Below, piece after piece: positions 29,397-64,000 of a DNA stretch of 64,000 nucleotides (positions are counted from its first letter, which is position 1; every line of letters starts with the position of its first letter). The position numbers were made by a program, and so were the translations under genes. A model generated the notes under the pieces. The model was not told the origin of the DNA, did not search any database, and was given only the letters and a program-made list of their open reading frames with translations. The stretch comes from a virus: positions 1 to 64,000 of IMG/VR virus record IMGVR_UViG_3300050343_000256; one strand, given 5' to 3'.

Positions 29397-30086
29397 ATGG
29401 CACAGTGGCCGCTACCACCTGATCTGCATTCAAGAACAGAGGCTGGTCCGCTGTGCCCTTTCAGCGACCACTCCCTTGGGAGTAGAGACGGACGAATCGC
29501 GAGATATGACGACAGCCATGCTTGCGTGAGATGCGTCTCAGCACTAACAGAGGGAAGGCTGACTCTGGATGTTCACAAGATTCACCGCAATCATCGTCGT
29601 CGTTTTCTCGAGTTCTGGTCGTTCGTAGAAATAAATGAACCAGATGAATGCTGGCCATGGCGAGGCAAGCAGCATTCAAAGACTCACTCTACATATTTCT
29701 CTATCCCACGATTCTGGGGAAGCGCACGTCAATACTCCGCTCAGCGTGCTGCTTTCTGGTACAGCTGGGGTGACGTTGGGAGACTTCCCATTAAGGCAGT
29801 TTGCGGAAATAATCAGTGCTGCAATCCGTTACATCTGAAAGCAAAGGGAGTTCCCCACTTTCATCACAACAGACATATGAGCAAAATTGACTTGGAGTAC
29901 AACTCAAACAAACTCGAGCACGATACGCTTTTATTCTTAGAAGCAACCAAGGAGAAAGACTCAAGACGCTTTGAAAAGATTCAAAAAACCAACAAGCTCT
30001 GGATTGATTTCCGGATGTCATCAGACAAGCCAGTCCAAATTGAAGACCTGATAAAGGCTGCGATGACAGAAGAAGACAGTCCTTAG
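29397..30086 (+). CDS. HNH/His-Cys-type endonuclease-like protein
   Basis: DECWPWRG...VCGNNQCCNPLHL. Confidence 0.65.
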   Translation: MAQWPLPPDLHSRTEAGPLCPFSDHSLGSRDGRIARYDDSHACVRCVSALTEGRLTLDVHKIHRNHRRRFLEFWSFVEINEPDECWPWRGKQHSKTHSTYFSIPRFWGSARQYSAQRAAFWYSWGDVGRLPIKAVCGNNQCCNPLHLKAKGVPHFHHNRHMSKIDLEYNSNKLEHDTLLFLEATKEKDSRRFEKIQKTNKLWIDFRMSSDKPVQIEDLIKAAMTEEDSP

Positions 30087-36152: not shown

Positions 36153-36486
36153 TGTCTACGCCTAAAACAATTTCGTCCATGTCCAACTCCATTGTGGCAG
36201 ATTCATAGACATCCTTTATGTAATTAACAGCTTCTTCTTCTGTAGGTTCGTAGCCAAATATTGATTCCAGATCTTCCATGCTGTCAGGGGAGAAAGGATC
36301 CCTTTGCTCATCAACCCGGAAAACTATTCCAGCCCCTCTACTGAATTCCATGAAGCTCTGCTTCAGCTGAAACCTCACCTCCCAACAACCCAGCAAGGCT
36401 TCGACGAGTTCCTCCCTGTTGAGATCTTTCGCTTCTAGCTCGACCCGTTTTAGGATGAACTTCTGTTCTTGCGTTAGTTCGTACAT
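36145..36486 (-). CDS. nblA: NblA-like phycobilisome degradation protein with acidic extension
   Basis: ELTQEQKF.L..VE......NREEL...L. Confidence 0.6.
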   Translation of the reverse strand: MYELTQEQKFILKRVELEAKDLNREELVEALLGCWEVRFQLKQSFMEFSRGAGIVFRVDEQRDPFSPDSMEDLESIFGYEPTEEEAVNYIKDVYESATMELDMDEIVLGVDNE

Positions 36487-36859
36487 TTAAAGCCTCGCCG
36501 ATTGTCCAATGCGTCGAGATGGGCGCGACCCACGCGGACACCTTGTCGGCTCGCTTTTGACAAAACCAAGACGTCGACCTCCACCAATCTAAGTAATTCG
36601 GACTAGACCCTTTGGCCCGATTGCAGCGAACGCAGCATGGAACGATGTTGGTTCGAGCCCATCGGTCACCGCCCCACCTTCTGGGTAGAACGTGATCCAA
36701 TGTCATTTCCAATGTAGTGCCTTCAGAATCTTGGGATCGACCGCAGTAAGCGCATCCGTCCCAGGCATCTTTTATTGCTTGCCTATATCTTCTGATCGCT
36801 GCCCTTGGTTGCAAATCTTGCAGAGTGATTATGTACCACTCGGGATGTTCAGGCGTCAT
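36338..36859 (-). CDS. HNH endonuclease
   Basis: CAYCG; TLDHVLPR..GG; NIVPCCVRCNRAKG. Confidence 0.9.
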   Translation of the reverse strand: MTPEHPEWYIITLQDLQPRAAIRRYRQAIKDAWDGCAYCGRSQDSEGTTLEMTLDHVLPRRWGGDRWARTNIVPCCVRCNRAKGSSPNYLDWWRSTSWFCQKRADKVSAWVAPISTHWTIGEALNVRTNARTEVHPKTGRARSERSQQGGTRRSLAGLLGGEVSAEAELHGIQ

Positions 36860-60548: not shown

Positions 60549-61370
60549 TTAAAAAAGACGTTCAGCTTCTGCTGCGTTCTGAAAATGCTTTCTCATTGTT
60601 TCTCGAAGCGTATTCATTCCATTGAGCCCAGGAATGCTTTGAGCTTCTGGGTTTTGCAGCTCACTAGTCTTTTGATTATTGCTCTCGGTAATCCGCCCCG
60701 TGCCGCCCATGATCGCTGCGGCATTCTTTATTGCTGCTGCCTGGTCTGCGCCTGCGGTCATGCCGTTTGCAAGAACGCTATTGGCATCACCTGAACCCTC
60801 ACCTTCGTATGAGTTGCCGAACTTCTTGTTGTATTCACGCATCGCCAAAGCTGGATTGGCCTTAGCCCAAGTCTCCATGGGGCTGCCCTTTTCGTAGCCA
60901 AGGGCCTCGATGATTTCGGGATTAGCGCCAATACCAGCTTGACGTTGCTGAGTATTGAACTGGGCTAGTCCAGCGGCATCACCGCCGTAGCTGTTGGTCC
61001 TGGCAGCTTCGAGGATTGCCTTACCTTCATCAGTACTCCAGATGTCAGCACCTGGGGCGTACTGCTGCCTCATTGAGGTCAGCGCAGAATCACTGGAGTT
61101 GGCATCGTCACTGCGAACTGGAGGTTTTAAATCATTAGGAGGTGCTGGCTTGTCAAATTCAGCAGCTAGACGCTTAATCGCATCCATGTCCAGGTCAGCG
61201 CCCTGGTCGTCACGGCCCGAAGAGTCGAGTACCGCCTCTGTCGGAGAAACCGGCTTAACAGGTTTTTGCCTGTTAGTGCGTGAGTACCCGTCAGGGTTGC
61301 GATTATTTATGCCGCCGCTAATGGCGTCAAAAATTTCACCAAGTAATGTGCGGCTATACCGTTCTGCCAT
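60549..61370 (-). CDS. hypothetical late protein
   Basis: In the late operon. Confidence 0.65.
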   Translation of the reverse strand: MAERYSRTLLGEIFDAISGGINNRNPDGYSRTNRQKPVKPVSPTEAVLDSSGRDDQGADLDMDAIKRLAAEFDKPAPPNDLKPPVRSDDANSSDSALTSMRQQYAPGADIWSTDEGKAILEAARTNSYGGDAAGLAQFNTQQRQAGIGANPEIIEALGYEKGSPMETWAKANPALAMREYNKKFGNSYEGEGSGDANSVLANGMTAGADQAAAIKNAAAIMGGTGRITESNNQKTSELQNPEAQSIPGLNGMNTLRETMRKHFQNAAEAERLF

Positions 61371-61373
61371 GAG

Positions 61374-61859
61374 TTACCTCCAGTTCATTGATCCTTGGGC
61401 TTGCATCACTCGAGTGCCCACGGCAGTGTCTGCGGGGCCTGGTACGGACATGATGAATTCCGAACCAGCTCTGTCGTAGGCGTAGCGCCTAACTTCATCG
61501 CGGCGATAATTAGCCACGTACAAGACTTCGGCGAGACGATCACACTCACGTGTGTAAATCTCCCAGTAATCTTTGTCCGCTTTTAACGGCTCGGACTGGA
61601 AGATTGCACGATCCGTGTCACCCGTAATGCGCTCGACACGACTGGGCTGTGGCTGATCTTCAACGCGAAAAACCTGCGAAACCTTAAAAGATTTATCGCA
61701 GCGATCCATGTGTTCCAGGATGCGCGAATAGAAATAACTATCCGGCACTCTGGCCATCGCCTCTTCCAGACGGGCAATATCACCCGCCGGGAGGTTAGCT
61801 CCGACGTTGTATCCCAAATGGAAGCGACAACGGCTTTTGTCGTAGTCGTTGAGCTCCAA
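61374..61859 (-). CDS. putative head-completion/adaptor protein
   Basis: DKSR.RFHLGY pattern; position downstream of the capsid genes. Confidence 0.5.
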   Translation of the reverse strand: MELNDYDKSRCRFHLGYNVGANLPAGDIARLEEAMARVPDSYFYSRILEHMDRCDKSFKVSQVFRVEDQPQPSRVERITGDTDRAIFQSEPLKADKDYWEIYTRECDRLAEVLYVANYRRDEVRRYAYDRAGSEFIMSVPGPADTAVGTRVMQAQGSMNWR

Positions 61860-61894
61860 TGTTATTCAGCGACCTTTCAGTAATTCTATGCGAA

Positions 61895-62326
61895 TCAGTC
61901 GATGTAAATTAAGTCAGCTCCGATCACCTCGTCCCAGTCGACACGACCGATCTTTTTAAGCTGCTCAAGATTCTTGAATCGTTCGCCAGGAAGAGACAAC
62001 CTCAGCTCAACAATCTTCTTAGCCGTTGCGTAGCCGATGCCTTTGACATGCTTGGCGATACCTTCAGCAGTACCGAGATTGAGATTCAATCTCGTGTCGG
62101 AAGGAATGATTGTTTCGGGAAGCTTGTCTTCGTCTACTTCGACCTCTGCACTCTGAGGTTCGATTGAGACTCCAGTTCTACCTTTCCCCGCCTCGTAGCC
62201 GACTAAGTCAGCAAGAGCTACATAAGCAACTGCCCCGCTGGAGTTCTTCACCATTGCCCACTCTTTGTCGTGGTGTGAAATGAACTCGACCAACTGGCCA
62301 GTCTTGGTGTTTTGAAACAGCGCCAT
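61895..62326 (-). CDS. helix-hairpin-helix DNA-binding protein
   Basis: LNLN.GTAE.I...KGIG...AKKIV..R....F..LEQL. Confidence 0.8.
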   Translation of the reverse strand: MALFQNTKTGQLVEFISHHDKEWAMVKNSSGAVAYVALADLVGYEAGKGRTGVSIEPQSAEVEVDEDKLPETIIPSDTRLNLNLGTAEGIAKHVKGIGYATAKKIVELRLSLPGERFKNLEQLKKIGRVDWDEVIGADLIYID

Positions 62327-63054: not shown

Positions 63055-63501
63055 TCAATAAACGAAGGAATAAGCAATGGTGATGAAGTCGCGGTTAAGC
63101 ACTTCAAAACCAGCAAACAGCGACCAGATCATGATGATGAATCGTGAGAAATCATCATTGTTGTTCAACAAGATCTGAGCGTTGTTACCACCAATGCCAA
63201 CGCCGACTGCCTGAGGACCGAAGAAAATCATCGGAGCAGCAGTGGTCACCGTGTTGGTGATCGATGCGTCGTTAACAGTTACTTGCAGAGATTTCTCAGC
63301 AAGGTTGGTGGATTCAAACCAGCGAACTCCCTCAAATAGGAATCCCGTAGGCATGATTGGCTGTCCAGCCACGAAACCAGCCTGTCCGTAAGCGGGACCC
63401 ATGCCATAGAAGAAGTTGGCATTAGGAGCCTGCTCAGGTTGCAGGGGGTTGACCATGCCATTACCCGCGTAGCGAGCAATTTCACGGAAGGCGTCATTCT
63501 G
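63055..63501 (-). CDS. major capsid protein, 3' exon
   Basis: 149 codons, QNDAFREIARY...FEGVRWFESTN...FFGPQAVG...DDFSR...W. Confidence 0.85.
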   Translation of the reverse strand, partial: QNDAFREIARYAGNGMVNPLQPEQAPNANFFYGMGPAYGQAGFVAGQPIMPTGFLFEGVRWFESTNLAEKSLQVTVNDASITNTVTTAAPMIFFGPQAVGVGIGGNNAQILLNNNDDFSRFIIMIWSLFAGFEVLNRDFITIAYSFVY

Positions 63502-63757
63502 CAGTGTTGTTATCCCAGAAGCTCTTTATCTCCTGGTTCTCAATCTTTGTCATCGATTGAGCTCAGACTATATCTTCATCCCTGTGGGATGGAGGGCACT
63601 CGTGGATCCATTACTGAGTTTCCTCTCGGGATCTAGTCGTTGAACCTTCCAGATTGTGATCTGGCTTGGCTGCTGATTCCCCGAATGTGTGAAGGGGTCC
63701 CAGCAATTCACCCTCTGTTCACCCGGCTGTTACCAACCGAGGGCGCAAGAATCGTTT
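63502..63757 (-). ncRNA. group I self-splicing intron (256 nt, no homing endonuclease)
   Basis: P AATTGCTGGGA, Q AATCAGCAG, R TCAACGACTA, S AAGATATAGTC; exon ends in U, intron ends in G; removal restores the frame. Confidence 0.93.
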
Positions 63758-64000
63758 ACGCAGGTGCATCATTGCAGTTGGATCTGCAATGCAACGGTAA
63801 TAACCATCAGCAAAGGTTGGGACGTTGCGCTTCCGCATGTCCTTAACAACCTGCAGCAAGTCTGTCTTTACGTCAAACTTGGCTGATTCACCGGCTGCGT
63901 AGTTAAGGAACGGAGCGGCGGATGCCTTGGTTTTGCCGAGTGGGTAGTAATAACCACCAGCATTATCGCTAGCAGGACCAGCAGCTTCTGCTTTGAAAAG
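63758..64000 (-). CDS. major capsid protein, upstream exon (continues beyond the window)
   Basis: 81 open codons ...DMRKRNVPTFADGYYRCIADPTAMMHLR. Confidence 0.85.

Follow-up and report, generated by a model that had tools for sequence, protein, structure and literature searches.

A group I intron without an ORF of its own, here called intron B, interrupts the gene predicted to encode the major capsid protein of an S-EIV1-like marine phage, and the same site is occupied in some relatives of this phage and empty in others. The intron lies on the minus strand, both of its borders can be placed to the nucleotide, and its removal leaves an intact reading frame. We consider it very probable that this is a genuine intron of the IA type that is removed by the standard group I pathway. 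The stretch of DNA analyzed (the window) is 64,000 bases long and corresponds to bases 1–64000 of the 84,978-bp virus record IMGVR_UViG_3300050343_000256; the numbering of the record continues that of the window. The record bears direct terminal repeats and has a completeness rating of 100%, and its source is a complete 85-kb S-EIV1-like marine phage. Among 50,697 deposited phage records, Synechococcus phage S-EIVl (KJ410740.1; S-EIV1 below) is the sole relative, and the host, judged from this kinship only, is probably a cyanobacterium.

The capsid gene is laid out as three exons (18, 678, and 447 nt) with introns A (210 nt) and B (256 nt) between them; the features are collected in Table 1. 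The spliced coding sequence of 18 + 678 + 447 = 1143 nt has 380 codons and 0 internal stops, and its DNA shares 93.2% identity with that of the closest intron-less gene. Exons 2 and 3 each match the PHROGs family phrog_1357, "major head protein", with E-values of 1.5e-6 (profile positions 58–223) and 1.8e-6 (profile positions 249–344), respectively; the two matches are collinear. The uninterrupted S-EIV1 ORF matches the same family at E 1.4e-19, and phrog_267 at 3.7e-4. Upstream, on the same strand, are genes for a large terminase (phrog_38, E 5e-71) and for a 741-aa virion structural protein, and the Atlas language-model neighbors of an intron-less capsid homologue include clusters with Phage_capsid_3/4 (score 0.97), which we treat as a lead only. 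Pfam gave no match to the exons or to full-length intron-less capsid proteins, and a search of solved structures (PDB) by sequence, using a profile of 26 capsid homologues, gave none either. AlphaFold2 models of the capsid protein had a mean pLDDT of 31.5 from the single sequence and 40.1 from a 26-row alignment, both too poor for use. The assignment of the host gene as that of the major capsid protein is thus a well-supported prediction that rests on the PHROGs and Atlas features. In KJ410740.1 itself, positions 60859–62010 (+; locus L004) hold an intact 383-codon major head protein ORF where the record annotates an antisense ORF (60784–61545) and a partial ORF (61540–62010).

Table 1. Coordinates of the split capsid gene, of the elements of intron B, and of nuclease-like genes; positions above 64000 are those of the record.
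Feature	Position	Strand	Remarks
Exon 3 (last) of predicted major head protein gene	63055..63501	-	QNDAFREIARY...AYSFVY + stop, 148 codons; ORF frame
Exon 2, part in window	63758..64000	-	Continues to 64435 in record
Exon 1	64646-64663	-	ATG TGG ATT GAT AAC GAT, MWIDND, 18 nt; beyond window's end
Intron A	64436-64645	-	210 nt, ORF-less group I; beyond window's end
Intron B	63502..63757	-	256 nt, ORF-less group I, subgroup IA type; RF00028 and intron-less homologues
P1 with 5' splice site	63743..63761	-	Rfam alignment
In-frame UGA stop, 12 codons into intron B	63719..63721	-	...HLR KRFLRPRLVTAG*; ORF callers end gene here
Catalytic core P3, P4, P5, P6, P6a, P7, P7.1, P7.2 (GAAA loop), P8	63566..63715	-	
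P7	GACUA 63638-63634 with UAGUC 63570-63566	-	
Peripheral hairpins P9 (CUCAAUC/GAUUGAG) and P9.1 (CCAGGAG/CUUCUGG)	63515..63561	-	
Terminal G 63502 and exon-3 start	63496..63502	-	
HNH-type endonuclease gene, candidate 1	29397..30086	+	PHROGs phrog_1872/3593/826, E 1e-13 to 3e-8; no Pfam match
HNH endonuclease gene, candidate 2	36338..36859	-	Pfam HNH and HNH_5 above cut-off
LAGLIDADG_2 gene	64748-65455	+	PF03161, 36.4 bits vs cut-off 25; motif GLLGLLLTDGSL
LAGLIDADG-type weak paralogue, overlapping, without acidic motif residue	65349-65936	+	Paralogy E 7e-6

On the minus strand, exon 2 ends with ...ATG CAC CTG CGT at 63758, and exon 3 begins with CAG AAT GAC at 63501. The exon 2 frame enters the window at 64000, passes through ...ADPTAMMHLR, and then reads 12 codons of the intron to a UGA; a second frame, QNDAFREIARYAGNGMVNPL...AYSFVY*, spans 63501 to 63055. 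In S-EIV1, both exon translations (exons 2 and 3) match adjoining DNA within a single uninterrupted 383-codon ORF, to which exon 2 is 77% identical. At least 598 stretches in IMG/VR code for relatives of exon 2; the 80 best of these were retrieved. When both exons were compared by tblastn with the 79 loci holding both (L054, which ends before exon 3, was excluded), 0 bases separated exons 2 and 3 in 78 of the 79 loci, as in S-EIV1, compared with 256 in the window's genome. Because the exons adjoin in these 78 loci, the junction lies at R|Q, across which the homologues are collinear. In the one exception (L051), a homologous intron of 371 nt is inserted at that same phosphodiester bond. IMG/VR was also searched with a degenerate pattern that combines the final four bases of the intron with the start of exon 3; this search found three contigs from other samples (that of L051, L086, and L087) with introns of 370–371 nt at site B that are 71–74% identical to intron B. 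Three segments of these longer homologues are missing from intron B: 67 nt that extend P1, 31 nt close to the 3' end, and part of P8. Site B is therefore occupied in the window's own genome and in L051, L086, and L087, and it is empty in 78 loci. The longest ORFs internal to intron B are of 47 and 31 codons, which leaves no room for a nuclease in its 256 nt.

A preliminary description of this DNA, made from the letters alone, had placed a group I intron at 63502..63757 (-) in the capsid gene, lacking a homing ORF and causing ORF callers to truncate the gene, and had given its splicing product as MMHLR-QNDAF. All of the elements it listed were found in their places, the length of the internal ORFs and the UGA at 63721–63719 agree with the second and third of these claims, and the ORF frames and the intron-less homologues both yield the predicted product in frame.

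The Rfam group I model RF00028 matches the window at 63539–63767 (-) with 66.8 bits, above the gathering cut-off of 50 (E 9.1e-15, model positions 1–253). This is the sole match at gathering score to any Rfam family within the 64-kb window, and the whole record holds two RF00028 matches. The P, Q, R, and S elements that had been noted in order are each present in the sequence (P AAUUGCUGG, Q AUCAGCAGC, R GUUCAACGACUA, and S AAGAUAUAGUC), as are P7, a P1 with the U-G pair, and the terminal G. In P1, exon GCGU (63761–63758) together with intron AA pairs with UUGCGC (63748–63743), with the wobble U63758-G63746 at the splice site, and 6 of 6 pairs are retained in 4 of 4 homologous introns. For P10, exon 3 AGAAU (63500–63496) can pair with intron AUUCU (63752–63748, i.e., intron bases 6–10). 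In the three relatives with introns of 370–371 nt, exon 3 starts CAAAAUGAU and the intron has AUCAUUU beside its GCGC guide (a pairing drawn by eye); that is, the guide sequence follows the exon, with CAG/AUUCU in the window and CAA/AUCAUUU in the relatives.

The fit between the guide sequence and the exon ends of this same gene also bears on whether the interruption could be an assembly artefact, a chimera in which the intron of another phage was joined to this capsid gene. The record does come from a metagenome, and intron-less relatives with a 99% identical exon-2 protein circulate; nevertheless, we find a chimera scarcely credible, as homologous introns occupy the identical site in three contigs of other samples, and in a public run, a DNA contig of 388 nt reads through intron B and across both junctions with 0 differences (although this run may be the source sample itself).

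P7.1 (GAUCC/GGAUC) and P7.2 (GAG/CUC, GAAA loop) lie between P7 and the 3' strand of P3. Such an insertion is the criterion for subgroup IA, and intron B is thus placed in that subgroup. P2, P7.1, and P7.2 are named as class features in a passage of a 2014 review (PMC3984707). A 71-pair structure (P1–P9.1, including P2) was drawn on the window's own sequence and scored on an alignment of four sequences, three of which are 89–99% alike; 96.5% of the 284 cells were paired, and 21 of the 71 pairs had changed on both sides, i.e., in a compensatory manner. None of 500 shuffles equaled that covariation. Structures slid by 1–3 columns gave 33–47% paired cells and 0–3 double-changed pairs, a control that the true structure, having been drawn from the window's sequence, is favored to beat. 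The pairs altered on both sides fall in P2 (4/7), P7.1 (4/5), P7.2 (2/3), P9 (4/7), and P9.1 (2/7), and also in P5, P6a, and P8, and P4, P6, and P7 are invariant across the four sequences. Mismatches are confined to one U-C in P3 in three of the four sequences, one broken pair each in P6a and P8 in three of four, and one in P7.1 in a single sequence. Folding by energy only independently recovers P4, P5, P6, P6a, P8, P9, and P9.1, with an MFE z-score of -2.91. Intron B is an ORF-less group IA intron with a conserved, co-varying structure.

This conservation weighs against the idea that intron B is a decayed remnant no longer able to splice, in which case the record would represent a defective genome variant with a dead capsid gene. 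Such decay does occur in the family: one intron-A copy (L078) is without its 3' end and three exon codons; furthermore, the RNA contigs described below provide no evidence of splicing. However, the helices of intron B stay paired through the 21 compensatory changes, both of its splice sites, its terminal G, and its P10 are intact, the exons contain neither a stop nor a frameshift at 93.2% DNA identity to the nearest intron-less gene, and the record is a complete genome with terminal repeats. We therefore think a dead intron very unlikely.

In the standard pathway, the pre-mRNA would fold into P1–P9.1, and a free guanosine held at P7 would attack after U63758, the U of the U-G wobble in P1. The 3' OH thus exposed on the exon would then attack after the terminal G63502, with P10 holding exon 3 in place, and ...CUGCGU would be ligated to CAGAAU.... 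We infer this catalysis, its timing, and the route of spread discussed below. As the 380-residue protein needs both introns removed, virion production is predicted to depend on splicing. Public RNA runs, provided as assembled contigs only, were compared with the gene: in X12, contigs fall on the exons but on neither of the introns, and X16 has contigs over intron A. None of the RNA contigs joins across either intron, and they are uninformative for or against splicing; moreover, intron-less relatives in the same waters would confound any RNA junction. One 305-nt contig of X16 matches 54 bases of the intron B core (63599–63652, equivalent to 655–708 of locus L001) but has unlike flanks; it presumably represents another group I intron, from a different organism in the sample.

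Splicing might instead require a protein, in that the intron is real but is removed only with help from a host factor or, for example, from one of the LAGLIDADG-type proteins, whose genes lie 85 bases upstream of the capsid start, in the role of a maturase. It is well established that LAGLIDADG maturases can assist the splicing of group I introns, and a LAGLIDADG_2 gene, with a paralogue that is without the acidic residue, adjoins the intron-bearing gene. An "intron-encoded endonuclease maturase" is also named in a portion of PMC7886860. On the other hand, the LAGLIDADG pair is equally common beside intron-less genes (35 of 38 positive loci are without a 5' intron), three intron-bearing loci are without the pair, and the intron B core has all of the standard helices with few mismatches. 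Obligate dependence on a helper consequently seems unlikely to us, and we prefer the standard pathway outlined above.

The second RF00028 match in the record lies just past the window's end and is the stronger of the two (64445–64674 (-), 86.2 bits). This intron, A, sits after codon 6 of the capsid gene, 680 bases upstream of intron B. A census of site A could be made for 77 of the 80 loci (L017, L050, and L055 were excluded because they are too near a contig end), of which 69 are uninterrupted and read ATGTGGATTGATAATGAT|TTTCCNAAR, i.e., MWIDND|FPK. The borders of intron A follow from these 69 intron-less relatives, which read straight through. In the window's genome, the site reads ATGTGGATTGATAACGAT, followed by 210 nt ending ...ACACG and then TTCCCTAAG, and the predicted join of exons 1 and 2 is GATAACGAT|TTCCCTAAG, yielding the N-terminus MWIDNDFPK. 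A U precedes the 5' splice site of intron A, its last base is a G, and an in-frame UAA occurs two codons in. Introns A and B are only 50% identical and hence belong to different intron families. The "P1" that the Rfam alignment gives for intron A (UCGAUCCAU/GUGGAUUGA) was rejected, as it has no exon U-G pair, includes the start codon, and occurs in intron-less relatives; by eye, the P1 of intron A is AUAACGAU/GUCGUUGU. A hairpin UCGAUCC AUGU GGAUUGA at ~64650–64672 (-), likewise noted by eye, has the capsid start codon in its loop and recurs in intron-less relatives; it may affect the start of translation and account for the conserved first 20 bases. The defective copy of intron A in L078 (3832–4024) is without its last ~15 bases and the exon codons FPK, and this is either a decayed intron or one using a new 3' splice site that would give MWIDND-LLGAE.

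The occurrence of introns at the 5' end could be surveyed without bias, since the query, exon 2, is interrupted by neither site. In eight of the 77 loci, the first 19 bases of the coding sequence contain an intron, at one of three positions: after nt 18 in L078 and L082 (the window's own type, 97% identical), after nt 19 in L047, L049, and L051 (74–80% identical to the own type), and after nt 12 in L030, L057, and L068 (another family). Three sites are thus located within 8 bases. Rfam matches above the gathering score were obtained in L030, L047, L051 (two), L057, L078, L086 (three), and L087, and RF00028 found no match in six intron-less control loci. The capsid gene on L086 (IMGVR_UViG_3300025110_002272) contains three group I introns, at 1–212, 835–1204, and 1564–1829, which occupy site B and the Phe codons of HDF|AKQ and DDF|SRF. 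The introns at the latter two positions (sites C and D) share 62–65% identity with intron B and 73% with one another, such that a single family, comprising the window's intron B and the L086 introns at C and D (62–73% identity), is found at three sites of the same gene. Within the S-EIV1 clade, 13 of 80 loci (L100, L110, L117, L119, L121, L137, L138, L145, L152, L153, L158, L164, and L167) have, according to an nhmmer intron profile, a further intron immediately upstream of residue 4, where the first exon is apparently different; this sample was gathered with a full-length protein query that favors unsplit genes and so gives no intron frequencies for internal sites. Across the lineage, the capsid gene has at least six intron sites, at least three intron families, and up to three introns per gene.

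An intron without a nuclease gene could be mobilized by a free-standing enzyme, and the preliminary description proposed two HNH genes, at 29397 and 36338, for this role. Both are real HNH genes, but nothing ties them to the intron: homologues of candidate 1 (62–63% identical) and of candidate 2 (43–46% identical) occur in the contigs of L042 and L036, two near-complete relatives whose capsid genes are without an intron at site A or B. The LAGLIDADG-type pair is oriented divergently from the capsid gene. Among the 62 relatives whose upstream flank reaches at least 1300 nt, 38 have the LAGLIDADG gene, irrespective of introns, and a 5' intron is found in 3 of the 38 loci with the gene versus 3 of the 24 without it. 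Given the HNH genes in intron-less relatives and these LAGLIDADG counts, no nuclease is linked to the introns by its distribution. A PDB search by sequence found no match for either LAGLIDADG-type ORF. The pair evolves faster than the capsid gene, with 77% identity compared with 99% for exon 2 (L005–L007).

The patchy presence of introns among close relatives indicates gain or loss by events at the DNA level. Their spread may have gone by recombination between co-infecting phages, cleavage by a trans-acting nuclease, or reverse splicing, among which the data do not decide; mismatches relative to the nearest intron-less allele show no clear pile-up at the intron sites of the kind that co-conversion would leave. 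Several families and sites, one family at three sites of one gene, and no nuclease that tracks the introns would together suggest that introns hop between sites by reverse splicing, directed by short stretches that match the guide sequence, and then spread by recombination during co-infection. Reverse splicing as a route has long been proposed and is rarely documented in nature. That the capsid gene of S-EIV1-like phages is an arena for nuclease-less introns moving by themselves is a speculative reading, and we lean against it.

Group I introns of phages mostly reside in genes of DNA metabolism and, in cyanophages, in psbA. The td, nrdB, and sunY introns of T4 belong to subgroup IA2, reside in genes of nucleotide metabolism, and carry endonuclease ORFs. 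Intron B shares with them a P7.1/P7.2-containing core, the U-G pair of the 5' splice site, and an early in-frame stop, but it differs in being in a capsid gene and in having no endonuclease ORF. The orf142 gene of Staphylococcus phage Twort is said to contain three self-splicing group I introns, reportedly the work of Landthaler and Shub in 1999, and it too is one phage gene with several small introns; the host gene and phage group are different, however, and splicing in Twort was reportedly shown by experiment, whereas that in the S-EIV1-like phages is predicted from sequence. A group I intron that interrupts the lysin gene in phages of Streptococcus thermophilus, reportedly described with its deletion derivatives by Foley et al. 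in 2000, provides a parallel for one late-gene site with length variants (here 256 and 370–371 nt), again in another gene and phage group, and without the occupation of further sites in the same gene that is seen here. Lactobacillus phage JCL1032 is also said to have group I introns in two late genes.

A blastn search of intron B against the 50,697 phage records returned no close relative, only matches to the core, in 17 records and with a coverage of 22–58%; among them are Acinetobacter, Bacillus, Campylobacter, Clostridium, and Escherichia phages and two uncultured-phage records, with one match located in a terminase gene. Terminase-gene introns are described, in the sections available, for Shewanella phage KASIA, with splicing by RT-PCR (PMC8541194), and for the Jug phages, where metatranscriptomes back 37 of 76 introns (PMC12880540). 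A case of collaborative homing, in which an ORF-less cyanophage psbA intron is paired with an adjacent free-standing endonuclease, is attributed to Zeng, Bonocora & Shub 2009 in an excerpt of the review cited above (PMC3984707). The LAGLIDADG gene beside the capsid gene is reminiscent of such pairs, but this neighbor differs in its LAGLIDADG type and in not being associated with introns (3/38 vs 3/24).

The statement in the preliminary description that a capsid location is uncommon for a phage group I intron holds for the older phage literature, and the word "capsid" is absent from the 2014 review of bacterial group I introns (PMC3984707). It is not unprecedented, however: among the crAss-like phages, MCP genes of the Delta and Zeta groups contain group I introns, with one gene in five fragments, according to the accessible text of Yutin et al. 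2021 (PMC7886860). Capsid-gene group I introns are thus already published for crAss-like phages, and intron B adds to a known kind. As far as that text goes, the two cases share tailed phages from metagenomes, a split major capsid gene, and the possibility of several introns per gene. The crAss-like introns were found via intron-encoded endonuclease domains in gut phages of Bacteroidetes (PMC7886860, same sections), whereas those of the S-EIV1-like phages are 210–371 nt long, have no ORF, belong to an aquatic lineage, and are polymorphic among very close alleles. In a literature search over passages of main texts other than the S-EIV1 paper, no description was found of an intron in the capsid gene of a cyanophage or of relatives of S-EIV1.

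The general understanding of group I introns is unchanged in principle by these findings, but there are practical consequences. Gene callers fragment the capsid gene, because its ORF stops 12 codons into intron B and exon 1, at just 18 nt, would escape any ORF caller, and capsid-based marker surveys and annotations of this widespread aquatic lineage would accordingly miss or truncate it; at least 598 related loci are present in IMG/VR. Capsid production would, on the predicted pathway, depend on ribozyme activity, which would be a possible point of control, or a weak point, late in infection. In this lineage, small ORF-less introns are present in some natural alleles and absent from others, with many of both kinds at known positions, which makes it convenient for studies of endonuclease-free spread. 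Further along the record, between the head-assembly genes and the capsid gene, ~4 kb (66334–70607) is absent from S-EIV1 at that place; it contains three plus-strand genes, one of them for a phrog_240 head protein, and then a 399-residue endolysin-like gene on the minus strand.
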